Assembly: GCA_043228905.1 (NCBI GenBank)
Contig: JBHGNT010000001.1
Span: 24,118,001 to 24,182,000, forward strand
DNA length: 64,000 bases
Direction of reading: 5' to 3'
Source: Azolla caroliniana
Taxonomy: Eukaryota > Plantae > Polypodiophyta
Shown in pieces: positions 24,679 to 37,047 of the stretch; position 1 is the stretch's first letter, and every line of letters begins with the position of its first letter. The notes under the pieces are model-generated. The model ran no database searches. It was not told the DNA's origin and worked only from the letters and a program-made list of their open reading frames with translations. The position numbers and the translations under genes are program-made.

Positions 24679-24963
24679 ATGCCTGCTCAATTCAGACGCT
24701 TCTCCAAAAGGCTAATTCTGTCTGCTTCAGCTCACGGTCTATGGCGCCCAAGGTCTCTCTGCTCTTCCTGTATTGATCTCCCCCCTCTCGAAGCTTCCAC
24801 TCCATCCATCACAGTGTGGGGAGCAAACACAAACGTCGGGAAAACGCTTATCTCTGCAGGTCTCTCCCTATCGCTCCTATCATCTGGATCAAGTGTCTGC
24901 TACATAAAACCTGTTCAGACTGGTTTTCCAAAAGACTCTGATTCAGGTTTCGTCTTTAACAAG
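24679..24963 (+). CDS. BIO3-BIO1: BIO3-BIO1 exon 1 (presequence and DTBS P-loop)
   Basis: MPAQFRRFSKRL...VWGANTNVGKT...KPVQTGFPKDSDSGFVFNK|GT. Confidence 0.88.
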
Positions 24964-27900
24964 GTAATTCATATCATACCTTATGCATTCAGAGAAGAGG
25001 AGAGCGTACGCATCACATTTTGGAATCATTAAATGCAAAAATATAATTTGAATGACCACCAAAGTTCTTCATTTGAATTAAGAAGATTATATGTATATAT
25101 CTCACGTCGTGGAATAATTCCAAAAGAGTATATGTACGCATCACATTGCGTAATTCTAAGTTGAAGAGAGCATGCGTATACACCACTCACCAGTCTAAGA
25201 AGATGAGGAGAGCATGCGTATGCACCATTCACCACTCTCCAATGAAGAGGAGAGCATGTGTATGCACCACTCACCACTCTCTGATGAAGAGGAGAGCATA
25301 TGTATGCACCACTCACCGCTCTCCGATGAAGAGGAGAGCATGCATATGCACCACTCACCGCTCTCCAATGAAGAGGAGAGCATTCGTATGCACTATTCAC
25401 CACTCTGCAATGAAGAGTAGAGCATTCGAATGCACCACTCACCACTCTCAAATGAAGAGGAGAGCATGCATGAGCACCACTCTTAGAAGAAGAGGAGAGC
25501 ATGTATATATCACAATATATACTAGTTCTGAGGCGAAGAGAAGATAACTCGTTCTAAGAAGAAGAGGAGTGTTTATGTATCACATTGTATCCTCACTTTA
25601 TCTGTTATGATTATCACATTGCAAAAGACTCTGATTCTTGTTTCGTCTTTGACAAGGTACGGCATATCCTAATGCATTTAAAAAGCGATTGCAATCGGAG
25701 AGTATATGCGTCACATTGCATCCACAATGTGTCTCCTATGGTTGTCAACTGTCAGGAACATTCAAGGATCCATGGAGAGGTGCCTTTTAGCACTAGGAAG
25801 TTGATTGACATTCGGAATGGTCTCTATAGTTCTGAAAAATGCAAAGTACCTTTCCACATCAAGAATGACTTATATAGTTTTGAAGAAGGCCTTTTTGAAA
25901 GTAATCTTGATGTTCATAATGGGAACTGGTCGACTAGATCGATGCTCAGCCATGAAACTCCTCATGATGCGTCTTCTTGTTTCATATCGAGTACTGAATG
26001 GAGTTGGTTCCGGCCTGTTTCGCCTCATGTGGCAGCGGCTGAGGAAGGGCTTATTGTGGATGATTCTGTCCTTTTAGATAGAGTAGCAAATTCACTGGCA
26101 TGTTTTCAGAAAGGGTGTATTCACTCGGAGCATAGAAGTCAAGGCTTCCCAACATGGGCTATTATTGAAACTGCAGGCGGTATTGCTAGCCCTGGTCCAT
26201 CTGGAACTTTACAATGTGATCTCTACAGGTAGGTAAGATTCTCATTTAAACTCCTCCAATGGAAAACATTAAACCTCTCCCGCTCAAGGTCTTATAATTG
26301 TGTCTTGTGGTTGAGAATTGTATGGATCCTTGTAATTGCGGTCAAGTTATTGGCAATTTATTTTCTAGTTTGCGTGGATCCTTGAAGAGAATGCAATAAG
26401 CAATGTGTTTTGTTCTGAGATATACATGTTATACTTTTTAGACATAGTTTTAACTGAACTTGCAGGCCTTTGAGGTTGCCCGGTATTCTTGTTGGAGATG
26501 GAAAATTAGGTGGCATTTCAAGTACGATTGCGGCATATGAAAGCTTATCAAGTCGTGGCTATGATGTAGATGCAATCATTTTGCTGGACCATCAACTTGG
26601 GAATGAATATCAATTACGAGATTATTTACAACATAGGTTGTACATTGTTTTCTGTTGTCCTTCTAAAGAAACTCATTAGCTAGAAGCTTCATCATTAAAC
26701 CACTAGCTTTGATGTTAACATTGGTCCACCCCAAGCCGTTCGGCTAAAATGAAGTGGAGGTAATGTTTGATATCTTTTATGGAAAGCATAAGATTTCCTT
26801 GTTAACTTAGAACAACATAGAATCCAAAGTGTATTTGCATGCATCACTGCATCACTCTTGAATTATGCTTTGGCCTTTCTAAAGTGGGGGGAATTTCTTT
26901 GGAGCATCTCTAGGGGAATTGAGTTCTATTGCAATGCTCTCATGTTGGTTTGGTGTTATATATTTTGGGTAAAGCTTTGCAATTTGGGTATGAACTTGTG
27001 GATTCAGTAGAACTACCTCGACAATGTTTATAAATGATGTCCTATTGAAGTGAAAATTAGTATTCATCCCTTTTTATTTCTATTTGTTTGCCTTGTTAAG
27101 TTCTACTTGAGGGTTTGTTTTTGATTTAGGTATGGTTTAGAATAAGATTCAGCAGAACTTTGACCTGATCAATTAACTTTCTTAATGAAAAGACTATAGA
27201 TGTGGGAAGGAAGATCCTGGTCTCAGGATATACAGCAGAGGGGACGTGGCCTTTTGTATTGTGCATTGCATATGCATAGCGAGGGCATCCTGCATGGGAG
27301 TCCAATGTCTTTTCTTTAGAGATATTTGGTCTAACAATCGGCAACGGTTCGGTTAAGTTTGAGAGTGTCAAAACCAAACTGTTTAAAAATTTTGAAACTT
27401 GAACTGAACTGAACCGTTAAAAAATTGCAAACCGTTAAACCGTGGTTTCGTGGTTCGGTTTCAGTTTTCAACTAAGGTCAAAATTCAAATTTTAAACTAT
27501 AAAAATTTAAAAAATTTCATTAAATTTCAGAATTTTAAAGATTTTCCTAAAATGTGAGAATAAGGCTTGAAACTGAAAAGATTCTTTAAAATTAATTTTT
27601 TCTTTTACAAAAATAAATAAATAAAAAATAAATCAAAACCGTTCAACCGTTTAAACAGCGGTTTCTAACTGTTGAAACCGAACTGAACTGTTTAAAAAAA
27701 CCTGAACCTGAACCTGAACAGAACTGAACCGATTAAACTGTTAAGCTGCGGTTCGGTTCGGTTCGGTTCAAACCGAACCATTGCCTGCTGTTAATTTGGT
27801 CTACATAAATGACTCAAATCCCTCCTATGGGGTAACCAATTTGATGTGGATGATTGTATGTACTTGGCTACGTTTGCATCTTTGGAGTTGAGCTTTGAGC

Positions 27901-30900
27901 ATTGGCCATGATCCTACTTTTGATAGTAGCTTGGAAGTGGTTGAATCTCTCAACCATTGATTTTGATCATTTATACTGTCCAGTTGGTTTTAAGTGCTAT
28001 CTGTTTGTTAATAGGGCTACATGTGACTTTTTTCTTTATCTGGAAACTCCTCATATCCACTTTTGCTTTGATAAGAAAATTCTCTGATGAAGCCAGATAT
28101 CAAAAGGACATGTTTCATACCTGACTCAGGAACTCAACCTGCAACTTTGCATGCATATATTCTATATATCATTGACTGTGTTCCTTTCTTATGTTTACAG
28201 GCTCCCTGTCCTAGTTCTTCCATCTCTCCCTCATGATGTGAATGATGAACTTATTCAATGGTTTATACAATCTGGCAAAAATTTTTCTCAGCTTCAGCAG
28301 CATTTAGAGGCAACACATACACAAAAGCTAAGTAGATTGCGTGATATGAAAAAGAAAGCAGATCAATTACTTTGGTGGCCTTTCACACAACATTCTCTTG
28401 TTCCTGAAGAGAAGATAACTGTTATTGATGCTCGTGCTGGTGACACATTCACAATTTACAAGGTTTGTATTTCCACTTGATGATAAGGCTGCATTCATGA
28501 AATTTTGAATTTAAAGTAGACTATAATGCTACACTTATGGATTTGTGAATAAGCAGAATATAGTTTTGCAACATCAAATTTTGGAAAAGATAATCTTGTG
28601 CTTGCTGGTCCTATGTATCACAGAATTGATGACAGCAACAGGCATTATCATCATGCACGTCTATTCATGTTGGTACCAGATTGCCCTTCTCCGCTATTAA
28701 GCAGTTCACTAAGTTATCTCCTCTTGGCTATTGTGTTATGTAATATCCTCTCTTTTAGGCCAACTATGGTTGTTTTGAGATAATAAGCTGGCATGTCCCT
28801 TAGTCATTTATTCATGCAAGTTATTGTGGCTATGCTAGTCAACCTCATATCTTCTGCTCACTAACCCGAAACCCTCTTGAAAGAGGATTGTTCTGTTTCT
28901 TGCCTATCCCTTCTTTGTACATGATTGATGGCCGGTAAGCAAACCTTTGAAAGCAGATGGAGAGATGATGTTAGCACCACACATGCAGATCCAACTTAAT
29001 ATTTTCCTTGACTACTCAATATTACATAAACTTTGTATATCTATCCACAGACCCTAAAGATCAGGCCGCCTGGACACGTGGGGCCCTATGATACATTGGC
29101 TTACTATAACACTCATGCATAATCTACTTATAAGGGTTTCTTCAAGGAAGGGTCGTTTATGGAACCGTCAAGTACATTGCTCTCTTGGGCAGGATGGTCT
29201 TGCTGGAAAGTAGTTTAGGATAAATAATAATCAATTGCTAAATATTGAATAATAGGGATACCACATACATGATTTAGGTAATATGATGAATGACTGCTTT
29301 AGACAACTGCTACTAGGAATTCTGCTTTAGACAACTGCATTTTGCTAATTCATTTATTTTGTTCTTTAATCAGGATGTTAGGAATTCTGAAGTCATGATG
29401 CAACAATTTGATGGTTGTGCAAGTTGGTGGACCCAAGGACCAGATATTAAATTACAGGTGATATATGGCTATGCGATTCATGATGTGATAAAACCATTTA
29501 CTTTTCTATTGGGTTTTAGAATTTAAATATGTTTTGTCAAGCCCTCTTATTAATTAAAGTATATTATGCAGTTGGAGATTTCAAGGCAAATTGGCTATGC
29601 TGCTGGAAGGTTTGGACATGTGATGCTTCCTGAAAATGTTTATGAACCTGCACTGCAGTGCGCAGAACTCTTGATTAACCTCATTGGGAAAGGTGAAACC
29701 TACTTTCGTATGTGCTTAAAAGTTTATTTTGCATGTCAAACCAAATTATAAATGATCTTTTAGTGACTAGATGTTGAACTTTGTTCACATGCTCTTAGAA
29801 AGCAAAATACTGCGTCCATATCACTATCTGATGTGTTGCCTCATATTTGTGAATTTATGCATGAATTATGAATAGAGCGTGGGAAAGAGAGAGATTAAAT
29901 TAAAATAGAACATCACAATAAAAATATCCAGTCATTCTACATGTGTACAGGTTGGGCGGACAGGGTATATTATTCAGACAATGGCTCTACAGCTGTTGAG
30001 ATTGCCATAAAGATGGCATTCCGCAAATACCTTCATGATAAAAATCTCCTTGCAATTTGCAACTCTGAGAAGGAATCTCACAACTTGAAGGTACAGTTAT
30101 AATCATACATTGTCAGATTTCAAACCATTTTGCTGCTAATAAGCGTTACTGTATTTTTGATGTTCCTTATTTGTTGTTTTACATTCCTGAGAATACAAGA
30201 ACACATGATTCATAGAAAGGGGAGGGGGTATCTCACCCAAAAACTACGAGAAAGTCCTCTCTCCAATTAGAATGCATGAATCATAGTGTTCCCTATCAAC
30301 TTTTAGGAAAGACTTTCCTAACAGGGTGGCTATGTGCTACCTAAGATATTCTTGTTTTGGGTTTTCAAGATTAGAAAAACAGATATTCCTTAAAAGGGAT
30401 GCACTTTATCAAAAATCTAGGGAAGTACAAATTATATGCACTTCCCGTTGTCATCAGGAGAGAAGTTTGAGACATCTAAAGCTCATCATAAATATGGGAT
30501 GAGAGCTCAGGATAAAGAAAAGGATACTGTCCTTGTCTGTGGTTATTCTTCTAATCTGTTGTCATTCACAATAATTATGATTGCATCATTAATTCATACT
30601 CATATATAAATTTTAAGGATTAGATAGATTTTTACTCCCTCTTGCTACACAAGCAATGGTTAAACTCCCGTGATCATGAGAACATTTTTCCTCTGTACAA
30701 TGTCTTGAGGTGTACTACATACACTCTTCTTGAACAAATTAGAAAGAGTCGATGTACCAGGGGGAGATTCTGAATATGGACTGGTGGGGAAATGACGCCA
30801 CACGTGTACTATTAGCAAATACACACTTGTTTAACAGCCTAGAAAGAGTCGACGTCCCAGGGGAAGCTTCTGGAAATGGACAGATTGAGAAATGTATTAG

Positions 30901-33900
30901 TGGGTATCTATCACCACAATAATTTAATGAGTAGTGTATTAGTTGTGTGCATATGGTTTGCAGAATTTTCAGCATCCTATAAATTCCAGTGTGGCTACAA
31001 TTATAAGTGATGATTACACCTGCCTCATCGGTTGTGAATAACTCAGAAGTTAATAGTTTGAAGTGATTCCAAGAATTAATCTATCCACTCACGGTTTTGT
31101 GCTTGTCTGTCTTCGCCCAGATTTGCTCATTTCTCGTTATTGGCATGATACAGACTTGAAATTGAGATAAAGCAAAATGTTTATGGAAGAGATTATGTAG
31201 ATTGAAGATTGTAGATCTGGTCATCATATTTATTTCAAAGTATTGATTCAAATTGAAATATGCTTACAATGCGCATGATATTTTTGGCACCGCAGGTGAT
31301 TGCCCTGAAAGGTTCTTATCATGGTGATACACTGGGTGCACAAGATGCACAATCTCCATCTCCATACACGGGTTTTCTTCAGCAACCCTGGTAATGTATT
31401 CCATATTGATATTGTGGTCAGCTAGACAGTAGCCTTTTTGCTTACTTTCTGTAAACAGGTACAAAGGGAGAGGACTGTTTTTGGATGCCCCCCAAATTTT
31501 TATGCTTAATGGGAAGTGGCAAGTCCTTCTTCCAGAAAGCTTCCATGCTTTGCAACCAGGATCAATTTTAAATGGTAAGGCATTCTCTGGCATGAAATAA
31601 TAGGAAATGAGCACGTCATAACCATTTAGTATGATTGTGCATGGAACTATACTAAGTAATATTTTTTCGATACAATGATTTACATAAACATATAAATATG
31701 AAAATGTGTTTTTATGGAGAGAACCCTGTTTCTGGTAAGTAAAAGAGCAATTCATCAGTTCATTTGCATGTGAAACAGAAAATAGTAGGACTTGGCTATC
31801 ATGCATTTTATGGCTTAATGCGTGGATATGCTACCACGGTTTACTTTCAACAGAAATATTCTTTGAATCAAGAGATGATTTGTTTGACAAACAACGGGAT
31901 CAATCAAAATTTGCTGATGTATACAAGAACTACGTGAAAGATTGTCTCTCCTCTTGCATGGACGCTTTACCAGCAGCATTGATAATTGAGCCAGGTATGC
32001 ACTTTGATCTAGAAAGCATTGGTTTGAGTAAATTAGGAAGCTTTAATATATTTTGGCAAGGATTATTGAGTTAGATTTTTGTATTTGAAATAATTATCTC
32101 AAAGAATTATGTCTTACAAGGTCAATGCTAAGATTGGGTTGAAACATTAAGAGTGGAATATTGCATGCAGATCACTCAAGCACATCCAAAGAACACATAG
32201 TTATGAGTTATCATGTTACAATCTCATAGTGCCTTGTGAGTGGCTCACTAAGGATAGACACAACTTAATGTCGTAAAGAAGAAGTCGCACCTTGTATAAT
32301 TCCCACATACCACCATAAGTTGTCGTAGAGAGGTACTGTTTTTTGTCCAGCAATAGTGCTGTTAGATACTGTAAAATATTCCCTATCTGGTATGTTTCGC
32401 TTGATCACACATGGGCATATCTTTCACTTGTTATCAAGGTCTCGCACATAGATTAAGAAAATAATATTTTGACTTAGTGTTACAGTGCTCTAATGTATAG
32501 TGATGTGCTACAACTTTTTAGATATGTAAATATTGCATACATGTATACGTCATCTATATTAATTTGAAACAATAGTGCAATGTTTCACTAAGTTTCCAAG
32601 AGCTTGATCATGCATGGGCATATGTTTCACTTGTTATCAAGGTCACACATAAAATTGGTTCGTAAGAAAAAAAAAGTTTTAGTGTTATAGTGCTGCTCGA
32701 ATATGTTACGCTTAGAGAGCTCGGCTTCAATCTTAAATATATGTAAATATTACATATATATGTTGGCATGTATGTATCTATCAATCAATATTGACTTGGA
32801 AAGAACAGTGCACTGCTCTATGCTACTGTAAATTGAAAAGAATGGGCATGCAGACCCACCGTGACTTGCTTTGTTACTGGCTGAATGCTATGATTGAACC
32901 AAAACAAGTAATGGCCACCCAGCTTCAGAGTTATTGTTCATAGTTCTTTGTCTTTGGTAACCTTGTCTCTCACGCATACATATACTTATAGTACACACAA
33001 TCAAGTTGATCTTTGCTGCACTACTTAACACCTTGATAGAATGACTTGTCTTGTTCTTTGCATCCACAAACAACTGCACTGGTCTTGCAGATTTGCCTTG
33101 TCAGCAAGCATAACCATACAAACAATGCCACTTCTAAAGCACTCCTAATTCTCATGACCACGAAGGTCTGTTCAGGTAATTGAATGTATGAACATTATAT
33201 GTATGACTACTATATGGTTATACATATGTAAAAAACGTTTGGCATTATCCCTACTAAACAGGCTGGGGTGGCAACTATGAGCTATTTCTGCCCGGTCTGT
33301 TTACAACTCAACCTCTATCAAATGCTGCTATTCCTCAAATTGGGCAAGAGAATCCCATTGCAGTTACAGCCTGATGCTTCTTTCCCTGCACCCAGAAATA
33401 GTTTTCTAATGCCAGATCCTGCTGTTCCATCCCCCCATGCTTTTTGCAATTTTCTAATACTATACAGAGGATGTTAAATGATTCAGATGGACACAACAAT
33501 TACAACATGTGTTTGATTATTTGAAGAAGGTATTAGATGAACTTTTTTATTCATCTCTTTTGAAGTTTCTATTTTGCAGTTATTCATGGAGCAGGTGGGA
33601 TGATGTTGGTGGACCCATTGTTCCAACGAATATTGATTGCAGAATGCAGAGAGAGGAAGATACCTGTGATTTTTGATGAAGTGTTTGCTGGATGTTGGAG
33701 ACTTGGTGTGCAGGTGTGAAAAATGTCAGAACAATATGCCTCATAGGAGTTATAAATGTGATACAAATTTATTTTTATCATAGAACAGTTGTGCTTCTGT
33801 CTTTCCCACATCATCAATTTATGCTGTCCTCATCTGCCATGGAACTAGAATACCAAGAATGTAGCACTTTTCAATTTTTTTCTCTCGTTAGCAATGCCTT

Positions 33901-36900
33901 ATACATACATACATACATGTTTGCATGCATGTATATGTGCATACACACATACCCACATATACAGCGGGATTCCTGACATTTTTACTGTTATTGTTCAATA
34001 GAAAACCAAAGTTCTAATTCTCCTGATATATACGGATCACAGCTCCTGATATTACTTTCATTGTTCATGGGCGATCAAAGTTCTGATTCTCCTTGCTACT
34101 TTTTATCGGCAGGCTTGATTCTGTTGACTCTCTATGGCTCTAGCTGCCTGTTTGTTGCCTCTTCAGTTTCGCCAGTCCTCCTGGATACAGTCTCACTTTG
34201 CTTCATTGGCTGTTGAGTTTTCCTGAAACAAGGTTTCGTCCCTGGTGTTTCTTAGAATTTTGTCTGTGCTGTGTGTTCTAATTATGTTTGGAGAGTCTTA
34301 TGTCTCCTATCTCATGCTGCTGGTCTTTCTTTCTTTCTTCTTTTCATTTCGGCTAGTTTTGCTAAGTTTGGAGAGGGAAAGTCTGGTTCCCTCTGCTGAG
34401 TGTCCCCTCCTTTCCATGTAGGGTGATTGCCACTCTACTGGGATCAGCAGGTACATTATTTCGAGTATGTTGAAAGATTTGCTGTTATAAGATTTCCATA
34501 TTTTAAACATTTACTGGATATTTGCTTTATGAACCATTTAGTAACTCAAACCTCTGTGCTGCTATTTATGGTTTGATACATCAGTTGACATGACATTTAT
34601 CTTGACTAGGTTTGTTCTATCACTGCTGATGCAACATGTACTTAATGTTCCTCACTTTATAGATTATTGGAAAATCTGGTTCTTGATATTGTGTACCATT
34701 CCTGTGATGGAATATTTACAATTTTGTTTTGAATGTGGTGATAAATTGGTTATCAATTTGGGTTCCAAAAATCTTGCATCATGAATTATACTAGTTTGTT
34801 CTAAAGAGGTTGAAATATACTTGTTGCAGTCATGTGCCAAATATCTTCATTCTACACCAGATATAGCATGCTATTCTAAACTTCTGACTGGTGGCAGTAT
34901 CCCTCTCGCGGTAACACTTGCGTCTGCTTCTGTGTTTGAAGCATTCAAGGGGTCTTCAAAGGTATGGATGTGATGCAGTCAATGTATTTGTGATAAGTGG
35001 GATATACTAGTAGCCATTTTGAGATGGGGAACTTTGAAATGCAGAGGTAGCTAAACTGATAAGATGTATGGTTTCAATACGGGAAAGGGGTTCAAAGAGA
35101 GAGTTATGAATGGACAAAAAAAGTTGTGCACGAGTTCAAATCTTACTAGTGCCTCTTTTAAGGTTGCAGCAGTATGGAAGGACTTAATGGGGCTATTGCA
35201 TCTTCTAGCTGTGTTTTGTCAAACCAATCTGTATGCATGCATATATGAGAAATGGAGAACACATTGATGAAGTCACTAGTATACATGGTTCCACCTTCAT
35301 CTCCACTTGAGATGGGGGAAATGGCACAGCTAACAATTTGCATTATTCTTCGAAAATTAGATTATCAGTCATGACTATTACTGCAAATCATAGTGTTTTT
35401 CTAATGCAGATGTATAATCTAATGTTCATGGCTAATAATCAATCGTAGAAGAAGAATGCAGATTGTTAGATGTATGCTTGTGCATATTGTTATCCTGTGC
35501 TAGAAAATGATTGAAACTCATGTGTATTCGAGATTGGAGGGTTTTTTTAAGTTTTTGCATCAGTTTACATAATGCATAAATAAAAAATTTATTTCCATTT
35601 CTATATCCCGTTTCCACTCCCCTTGTTTGCTCCCTGCTGTAGGTTCCAGCTGTCCCGAGGTTACCTGTCAACCATTTCCTCTGACCACCTCTGTCTTCTC
35701 ATTCAACCCCAATATTCTTAATGGCCCAAACAAGTTCCAATTTCCAAGCTCCTGTTTTTTGGATCTCCATCACATCAATATAGTTTAGAGCATATTTGTT
35801 AATCCATTTCGTATCAAGAGACCCATGGTTATTGTAGGAAGAAACTGCTAGATAGGGTGTATTGCCACTGATGCATCCTTATGTTAATGAGGGTTGTCCC
35901 GATTTATTCTGAACACATTCCAATAACGTGATGTTACAGTGGCAGTAAGGGATAGGCAATGCTATTTAAATCTATAACACTGAGAAACATACCCTTTGAG
36001 AGAGGTATGCTGATGGAGACCAAAGTTGAGCACTTAGCTGTAATATTGTAACAGCTGTAAAATGAAGACAAGAATAATAAATATTTTGTAAACTGTATAA
36101 ATGTTATTTTTTTATATGCAGTTACAAGCTCTTCTTCATGGACATTCATATTCAGGGCATGCAATAGGTTGTCAGGCTGCAATCACTTCATTAAAATGGT
36201 TTAGCAATCGTGAAACCAATAAAAATCTGCTACCTTGTGGGACACGTTTAGTGGAGGTGAGCATAGCTTTAATATGGTATGATTTTTTATTACTAAATCT
36301 AATTAATCACACGTTCATCTCCAGCTATGGGAACCAAAGATTGTGAATGAACTCTCCATGCATCCAGCACTACAACGAGTTATCTCACTTGGGACAGTGT
36401 TTGCAGTAGAACTCAAAAGTGATGCTTCTGATAGTGGGTAAGTGTTTATAAAGTAGCATTAAAGGCATATCTGCTTATAGTTTTTGTTCTGATGATAAGC
36501 GAAATTATAAACCCGTTGGAAAATAAATAAGCAAGTGACTGTATATGTCTATCAAGTTTGAGGGATTCTTAATCAATAATTGGACGTTTCTAGTCATATG
36601 AAGCCAATTGCCCTCAGAGCCCGATTGGAGAAACAAAACACTTTTGTTATTAGCAATGGGCCCGGTTTCGGCTCAAACCGAACTGAACCGTTAAGCCATG
36701 TTGTGTCGTTAATATACATGCAAGTTTAATGGCACAGGCATAATAACTAGTAGGCATAGTGTTTGTAGGAATATTTTTGGAAACTGATAAAATTAGGCTT
36801 TCCTGTGTTTTATCATCAACTTTTGTGAATATGCAGATATGCATCAATGTCCTCTCAGAGGATTGTACAAGCTCTAAGGGAAGAGGGTATTTACAATCGA

Positions 36901-37047
36901 CCTTTGGGTAATGTTATTTATCTAATGTGCGGCCCGATGACATCACCTACAAAATGTTCAAAGCTTTTGTGCAAATTATCTCAACAGCTCGATTCATTCA
37001 TGGATAGCAATGGCTTCTCTAAAAGCTGTCCTGTCATGGCTTGCTAG
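24679..37047 (+). CDS. BIO3-BIO1: Bifunctional dethiobiotin synthetase / 7,8-diaminopelargonic acid aminotransferase, 15 exons, about 903 aa, probable mitochondrial presequence
   Basis: Exons 24679-24963, 25657-26228, 26466-26636, 28201-28462, 29374-29457, 29572-29692, 29951-30090, 31296-31390, 31459-31574, 31854-31994, 33580-33713, 34830-34961, 36122-36256, 36325-36437, 36837-37047. All introns are GT-AG with consistent phases, 2712 nt in total. Motifs: P-loop GANTNVGKT, ETAGG, WWPFTQH, ASWWTQG, SDNGSTA, SYHGDTLGA, IFDEV, PLP lysine YSKLLTGG, HGHSY, RPLGNVIY. Confidence 0.95.
25160..25505. repeat. About 42-bp minisatellite (GAAGAGGAGAGCATGCGTATGCACCACTCACCACTCTCCAAT-like), about 8 copies, in intron 1
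   Basis: Direct reading. The 14-aa periodicity in the overlapping ORFs (MHHSPLSNEEESIC) matches. Degenerate copies extend from about 24990 to 25590. Confidence 0.92.
25657..26228 (+). CDS. BIO3-BIO1: BIO3-BIO1 exon 2
   Basis: AG|VRHILM...VSPHVAA...ETAGGIASPGPSGTLQCDLYR. Confidence 0.85.
26466..26636 (+). CDS. BIO3-BIO1: BIO3-BIO1 exon 3
   Basis: PLRLPGILVGDGKLGGISSTIAAYESL. Confidence 0.92.
27332..27793. mobile_element. hAT-type MITE (462 bp) in intron 3
   Basis: Imperfect TIRs TAACAATCGGCAACGGTTCGGTT / AACCGAACCATTGCCTGCTGTTA. 8-bp TSD ATTTGGTC at 27324-27331 and 27794-27801. Subterminal AACCG/CGGTT motifs around an AT-rich core. Confidence 0.9.
28201..28462 (+). CDS. BIO3-BIO1: BIO3-BIO1 exon 4
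   Basis: LPVLVLP...WWPFTQH...FTIYK. Confidence 0.92.
29374..29457 (+). CDS. BIO3-BIO1: BIO3-BIO1 exon 5
   Basis: QQFDGCASWWTQGPD. Confidence 0.9.
29572..29692 (+). CDS. BIO3-BIO1: BIO3-BIO1 exon 6
   Basis: GRFGHVMLPENVYEPAL. Confidence 0.92.
29951..30090 (+). CDS. BIO3-BIO1: BIO3-BIO1 exon 7
   Basis: WADRVYYSDNGSTAVEIAIKMAFRK. Confidence 0.92.
31296..31390 (+). CDS. BIO3-BIO1: BIO3-BIO1 exon 8
   Basis: VIALKGSYHGDTLGA...GFLQQP. Confidence 0.92.
31459..31574 (+). CDS. BIO3-BIO1: BIO3-BIO1 exon 9
   Basis: YKGRGLFLDAP. Confidence 0.9.
31854..31994 (+). CDS. BIO3-BIO1: BIO3-BIO1 exon 10
   Basis: SRDDLFDKQRD...AALIIEP. Confidence 0.88.
33580..33713 (+). CDS. BIO3-BIO1: BIO3-BIO1 exon 11
   Basis: IHGAGGM...IPVIFDEVF. 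Confidence 0.92.
34830..34961 (+). CDS. BIO3-BIO1: BIO3-BIO1 exon 12 (PLP-binding lysine)
   Basis: PDIACYSKLLTGG. Confidence 0.92.
36122..36256 (+). CDS. BIO3-BIO1: BIO3-BIO1 exon 13
   Basis: ALLHGHSYSGHAIGC. Confidence 0.92.
36325..36437 (+). CDS. BIO3-BIO1: BIO3-BIO1 exon 14
   Basis: LWEPK...LGTVFAVEL. Confidence 0.9.
36837..37047 (+). CDS. BIO3-BIO1: BIO3-BIO1 exon 15 (terminal)
   Basis: YAS...GIYNRPLGNVIYLMCGP...TAG. Confidence 0.92.

Follow-up and report, generated by a model that had tools for sequence, protein, structure and literature searches.

An intron of the BIO3-BIO1 gene in the fern Azolla caroliniana with a probable origin in the tandem duplication of AG|GT-containing coding sequence

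The window, which is the whole 64,000-nt stretch of Azolla caroliniana DNA that was analysed, carries an intact BIO3-BIO1 gene (Table 1). Its start ATG lies at 24679, its stop codon ends at 37047 and it contains 14 introns. The product is a fusion of dethiobiotin synthetase and DAPA aminotransferase, the arrangement by which a plant BIO3-BIO1 is recognised. Exon 1 matches Pfam AAA_26 in a profile search (E 1.1e-7), and both exon 1 and exon 2 match the Arabidopsis structure (PDB entry 4a0g). The spliced translation is identical to the Pteridium protein at 567 of 848 positions. In a protein tree of 19 sequences it groups with the ferns (99/100), outside the clade of Pteridium, Ceratopteris and Adiantum (100/99). 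A conserved piece of exon 2 has one match in the genome search, a count that is a lower bound. In Arabidopsis, the bio1-1 mutant is described as embryo-lethal (PMC8518694). Direct repeats are also observed in intron 7 (30719-30894, 76 nt, spacing 100) and intron 10 (32399-32649, 48 nt, spacing 203), so local duplications are common in this gene.

Table 1. Features of the BIO3-BIO1 gene and of its first intron (positions of the window)
Feature	Positions	Strand	Remarks
BIO3-BIO1 gene (dethiobiotin synthetase + DAPA aminotransferase)	24679..37047	+	15 exons, 903 aa, intact
Exon 1	24679..24963	+	285 nt, last codon AAG (Lys)
Exonic source, 5' part of duplicated unit	24929..24963	+	codons for KDSDSGFVFNK
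Intron 1	24964..25656	+	GT-AG, phase 0, 693 nt; the exon frame meets 12 stops, the first at 25030
Intronic copy of exon 2 head (25657-25717), gives donor	24964..25019	+	L037 vs exon 2: 13 of the first 15 nt
Intron part without assigned source	25020..25081	+	62 nt
42-bp minisatellite region	25082..25565	+	regular core 25166-25482, 7.5 copies; degenerate units beyond core
Intronic copy of exon 2 25697-25747	25566..25616	+	38/51 identical, register 131
5-nt filler at duplication junction	25617..25621	+	same as motif 34 nt upstream
Intronic copy of exon 1 tail	25622..25656	+	32/35 identical; predicted branch point, pyrimidine tract, AAG acceptor
Exon 2	25657..26228	+	572 nt; followed by a phase-2 intron after CDLYR, common to angiosperm loci
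Exonic source, 3' part of duplicated unit (exon 2 start)	25657..25747	+	gapless against fern orthologues

A preliminary description of this DNA had noted that the junction of exon 1 with intron 1 is repeated at the junction of intron 1 with exon 2. This is borne out by the alignment of 24926-24978 with 25619-25671, which are 85% identical and lie 693 nt apart. This repeat has a local score of 60; the highest score among 1000 dinucleotide shuffles is 27, and among 177 background tiles of the window it is 24.5. Over its last 38 nt, intron 1 agrees with the last 38 nt of exon 1 at 34 positions; for the other 13 introns of the gene the figure is 10-15 of 38. AG|GT is present in both copies, and the GT of the first (24964) and the AG of the second (ending at 25656) are used, as in an intron of the Rogers type. 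Joining them, as had been proposed, removes a phase-0 intron of 693 nt and keeps the reading frame open through exon 2.

The size of the duplicated unit has to be revised. It had been put at about 55 nt, and we measure about 126-131 nt: 35 nt of exon 1 and about 91 nt of exon 2, placed around AAG|GT in a register of 131 nt. The intronic segment 25566-25616 aligns with 25697-25747 of exon 2 without gaps, and none of 1000 shuffles scored as high. Among the offsets from 120 to 140 that were tried, 131 alone gives this match, the others reaching 6-21. At the opposite end, intron positions 24964-25023 show a weaker likeness to the head of exon 2, which 2 of 1000 shuffles reached. In two close relatives, L037 and L106, the intron start is nearer to exon 2 than it is in the window (13 versus 11 of 15). 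Direct exon matches cover 147 of the 693 nt of intron 1, the minisatellite array 484 nt, and 62 nt are without a source. Two further candidates were dropped. A supposed third complete copy of the unit, at 25118, rested on a 10-nt match, which is missing from L037 and L106; retention of an ancestral Leu-Pro at the intron start is accounted for equally well by a 4-nt slip.

Both source segments are gapless against the fern orthologues, so the exons are the source and the intron holds the copy. These segments are contiguous only in the spliced gene, and the template therefore lacked an intron at the NK|V/L codon. The junction NK-V/L-RH aligns without gaps to five fern proteins, and the gain was precise, leaving the protein unchanged. 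An older intron-exon boundary is absent from the duplicated segment: both ends of the intron match coding sequence and the acceptor corresponds to a Lys codon. The copy on the acceptor side has diverged at 3 of 35 positions and the other copy at 13 of 51 (Fisher p 0.054). The lower divergence of the former would need constraint or conversion, and a comparison of the last 91 nt of intron 1 with its middle gave no significant extra constraint (p 0.28).

The splice signals of intron 1 have counterparts in the codons of exon 1. A branch-point-like CTGAT (25631-25635, A at -23) is found in both copies and is the predicted branch point. Of the 16 positions from -5 to -20, pyrimidines occupy 10 in the exon copy and 12 in the intronic one. 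The acceptor is AAG, a former Lys codon, and the other 13 introns of the gene end in CAG. Judged from the aligned copies, both CTGAT and the atypical AAG acceptor appear to be inherited from codons. The unit of 126-131 nt exceeds the minimum intron length and includes the predicted branch point and the pyrimidine tract. It had further been suggested that an upstream AG in the second copy became TT, removing a competing acceptor. The difference itself is real (AG at 24945-24946, TT at 25638-25639), 4 nt past the predicted branch point. A change of AG into TT is only one possible reading, since an ancestral CGN changing separately in exon and intron takes an equal number of changes; Arg stands at this codon in four of the six orthologues shown. 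An AG at -14 to -23 is found in five other introns of BIO3-BIO1.

Most of the length of intron 1 lies in its minisatellite region, which is about 40 nt shorter in L037 than in the window. Its sole genomic match is intron 1 itself, in a genome search that skips very common words and so gives a lower bound. The regular 42-mer alone resembles exon 2 at chance level (85 of 1000 shuffles, and 308 of 1000 in a second test). It matches the flanking intronic units, a likeness reached by 0-1 of 1000 shuffles. These flanking units resemble each other, and the 5' unit also resembles exon 2 (0 of 1000 shuffles). On these alignments, the tie of the minisatellite to the exon would run through the flanking units only, and we infer that intron 1 grew by local slippage.

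Sixteen sequencing runs were listed, none of which is on record as RNA, the RNA label being the guess of the tool; eight were compared with the window, all as contigs. The predicted joint between 24963 and 25657, with GT..AG at the intron ends, is present in four of the eight (X1, X15, X12 and X3), which come from four studies and three organism codes. In X1 the joint contains no other letters. The X15 contig also omits intron 2 and continues into exon 4, and loose ends of X1 reach exons 3 and 4. Both contig patterns are transcript-like. X13, which is probably DNA and shares its organism code and study with X12, has no joint and carries intron sequence across both boundaries. The longest exact word common to the two copies is 16 nt, too short for the assembler to have jumped between them, and this explanation of the joint is excluded. 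Two more runs, X14 and X2, have no listed joint and were left out of the count; their contigs end at 24966 and resume at 25630, a pattern consistent with a spliced path that was interrupted at an allele fork. Alternative splice sites for intron 1, which the preliminary description had named as a finding that would speak against the proposal, are not listed among these contigs; such contigs drop rare forms. If intron 1 were retained, translation would hit the stop at 25030. To be noted, the AG of exon 1 at 24946-24952 makes a second AG|GT, an in-frame cryptic donor 18 nt upstream, whose use was not seen.

The preliminary description took the intron for a lineage-specific gain in a core metabolic gene. 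The gain stands. It is not confined to one species: close relatives have the same intron, which places the gain at the level of a clade. L037 contains it whole (653 nt, with the same TT, CTGAT and AAG) and L106 contains its 5' part. In exon 1, the relatives that share the gain (L037, L106 and organism E) have diverged by 7-8%. The intron has diverged by 8-10% between the relatives, and the two copies differ at 13 of 51 positions. As a rough estimate from these sequences, this suggests that the duplication may be a few times older than the split of the relatives.

A motif scan of metagenome data gave at least 120 loci, 22 of which were chosen as land plant by eye. The cDNA L009, the broken copies L036 and L105 and both relatives of the fern were set aside, which leaves 17 loci with 12 distinct sequences: Arabidopsis, Populus, a grass-like locus, other angiosperms and two Sphagnum loci. 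All 17 of these non-fern loci, among the matches listed, read through the codon at which intron 1 lies. Fifteen are shown to be genomic, because 13 have GT after CDLYR, as in intron 2 of the window, and the Sphagnum loci have other introns. An ancestral intron shared at this codon across plants, which had been named as the finding that would speak against a gain, was thus not found in the seed-plant or moss genomic loci. Seed plants and moss are the nearest outgroups seen without the intron. Other fern families are not represented among the at least 120 metagenome loci. Pattern scans of genome_contigs and viral_contigs likewise yielded no other fern, which is to be expected of those collections, and other ferns were compared as proteins. 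About 20 alga-like loci among the matches listed have GTG|GT just after DSDxxLV, 9 nt (three codons) upstream of the fern site; they include L004, L008, L015, L017, L018, L050, L051, L057, L060 and L104. On the letters, this GTG|GT is a probable phase-0 intron at a different position, so introns arose close to the fern site before. Two side observations come from the same scan. The broken Populus-like copies L036 and L105 carry small expansions in the DSDSH codons, within the segment that is duplicated in the fern. In their BIO3 part, the Sphagnum-like loci L011 and L065 have two more introns, one on either side of the studied codon, at places where fern and angiosperm loci read on.

Splicing at the predicted sites, absence from seed plants and moss, and exon-derived ends support a gain by AG|GT duplication. 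Intron 1 very probably arose by tandem duplication of the exon segment around AAG|GT, according to the tandem-duplication model of Rogers. In the course of events that we propose, a stretch of about 126-131 bases within an exon not yet interrupted would have been duplicated in tandem, the first copy becoming the donor and the second the acceptor. The 5-nt templated filler hints faintly at break repair with template switching. CTGAT (-23), the pyrimidine tract and the AAG acceptor would already have been encoded by the codons for D-S-D, F-V-F and N-K, respectively. With these signals ready-made, the duplicate would have been spliced from the outset, probably weakly and in part, and splicing would have been strengthened afterwards. 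As soon as there were stops or a frameshift, unspliced copies would have been eliminated. The intron would then have lengthened from about 131 bases to its present 693 by slippage on a single motif within the copy of exon 2. If the filler is original, the fresh duplicate was out of frame (131 nt); if it is not, the duplicate was in frame (126 nt).

This last point also matters for a slower path, which we regard as unlikely. On this path, an in-frame duplication of 126 nt would at first have added a translated repeat of 42 residues to a variable loop, and a constitutive intron would have come later, after filler, stops and better signals. Without the 5-nt filler, the unit would indeed be 126 nt and its joining in frame. 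The length after DSDSxFV differs among plants, and the filler motif is amplified repeatedly in intron 1, so it may stem from later slippage. A fresh duplicate was spliced at 6-16% in human cells (PMC3265369). Against this, the measured register is 131 nt, no multiple of three, a filler-free version needs three of the five bases as substitutions, and the tail of exon 1 itself seems to have all the signals.

It is improbable that an older fern intron at this codon was overwritten or replaced, for example in that it was lost through cDNA and created anew, or converted by spliced sequence. K-V, a pair that fits AG|GT, stands here in several ferns, the alga-like loci have an intron nearby, and the absence of the intron is covered by seed plants and moss rather than by fern outgroup genomes. 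In grasses, loss outnumbers gain by about 7 to 1 and apparent gains are often losses (PMC4256211). However, an old intron would not yield exon copies at both ends in one register, and duplication of an intron-bearing segment would leave two introns and a middle exon. Moss and seed plants are without an intron at this site, and the algal position is three codons off.

A mobile element inserted at AGGT, with splice sites taken from its target-site duplication, is a very improbable source. Such insertion is a recognised route (PMC3443670), and the interior of the intron is repetitive. However, this interior matches the genome once (search skipping very common words, a lower bound), its repeat unit is tied to exon-derived flanks, and no terminal inverted repeat at the intron ends is found among the 25 longest listed. 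The direct repeat of about 126 nt is also far over the usual target duplications. These are usually 2-20 nt. An assembly error as the source of the second copy, or a broken gene, can practically be dismissed: we found no point in its support, the independent contigs of relatives (L037, X13) show the same structure, the copies differ from each other, and the spliced product is an intact protein of 903 aa.

Duplication of AG|GT-containing sequence thus remains the preferred origin, and it can be compared with known cases. For intron 8 of ATP2A1 in vertebrates, more than 420 million years old, the gain was deduced by phylogeny and reproduced in cells (Hellsten et al. 2011, PMC3265369). With that case and with the model of Rogers (1989), the fern intron has in common a duplicated, purely coding AG|GT, a precise gain, a codon-borne pyrimidine tract and branch point (predicted in the fern), and a unit above the minimum of about 60 nt. 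It agrees with the Rogers model (PMC3265369, PMC3443670) in all features that could be examined. In the fern, unlike in ATP2A1 as described there, both intron ends still show their source, a single-copy gene of a land plant is concerned, and AAG serves as acceptor. The potato RdRp intron (Ma, Lan and Niu 2016, PMC4974935) is likewise reported from a land plant, with a tandem duplication, an identified source, RNA support and a close relative that shares it. The potato duplication, as reported, runs across a boundary between intron and exon that was already there, takes over its 3' signals and brings in additional exon sequence (PMC4974935), whereas the fern case involved no earlier intron and left the protein unchanged. 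In the Drosophila (PMC2891723) and fission-yeast (PMC4974935) cases, as in the fern, a proto-splice site is reported as duplicated and the intron contains premature stops. The Drosophila cases are argued from short-sequence scores around the splice sites (PMC2891723), and those of fission yeast involve multi-copy short 24-bp AGGT repeats (PMC4974935); the fern, in contrast, has one traceable unit of about 126 nt and visible minisatellite growth. Features of transposons or introners (short target duplication, terminal repeats, genomic copies) were not found, with the genome search giving a lower bound.

Introns from internal duplication are reported as 188 events in seven taxa including Arabidopsis and rice (Gao and Lynch 2009, as tabulated in PMC3443670), and many of them are described as imprecise and as using latent sites (PMC3443670). 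Like those of Arabidopsis and rice, the fern intron is a plant intron born within a duplicated gene segment (PMC3443670, PMC4974935). As of 2014, in vivo support in plants was described for the transposon route only (PMC4256211). A literature search by listings found no prior report of BIO3-BIO1 intron 1; supplements may list plant cases. The Rogers-type mechanism is already known, and the fern intron is a clean natural example of it. Natural cases of this long-proposed route to an intron are rarely caught. Intron origins are still an open question, as the source of most gained introns is described as not findable (PMC4974935, PMC3443670). The fern intron combines the two usual marks of a gain, absence from outgroups and an identified source, with RNA support at the level of contigs, and without an older intron or a transposon. 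It also shows a route by which a small newborn intron enlarges by internal slippage and loses the trace of its birth.

A wider claim is advanced only tentatively. The intron would be precise and purely exon-born, would lie in an essential, single-copy enzyme gene of a land plant and would have its full history legible: one repair-type duplication with templated filler, signals from conserved codons, immediate rescue of the frameshift by splicing, and fivefold growth by a minisatellite derived from the intron's own sequence. It might then be the first fully traced gain of the strict Rogers type in a land plant. As the ancestral unit is still readable, the birth of the intron can be re-enacted in a plant minigene.

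The assembled runs contain further observations on this gene. Over 24682-24966, X14 and X2 each have two alleles; the exon 1 sequence of one equals that of the window, the other has diverged by about 6%, and the sources of these runs are possibly hybrids or polyploids. Intron 3 holds an alternative AAG acceptor (27193), to which loose ends of X2 and X14 connect either exon 3 (26636) or a donor at 26759. Contigs of X2, X14 and X15 also extend over the first part of intron 3 (26610-26920). A back-joint from 26920 to 26732 with 8 letters between, seen in X14 and X2, could stem from a segment duplicated locally in the allele of a relative, or else mark an alternative 3' end. An alternative BIO3-only transcript exists in Arabidopsis, and in the fern the joint 26636-27193 closes the frame at residue 344, giving a BIO3-only short form.
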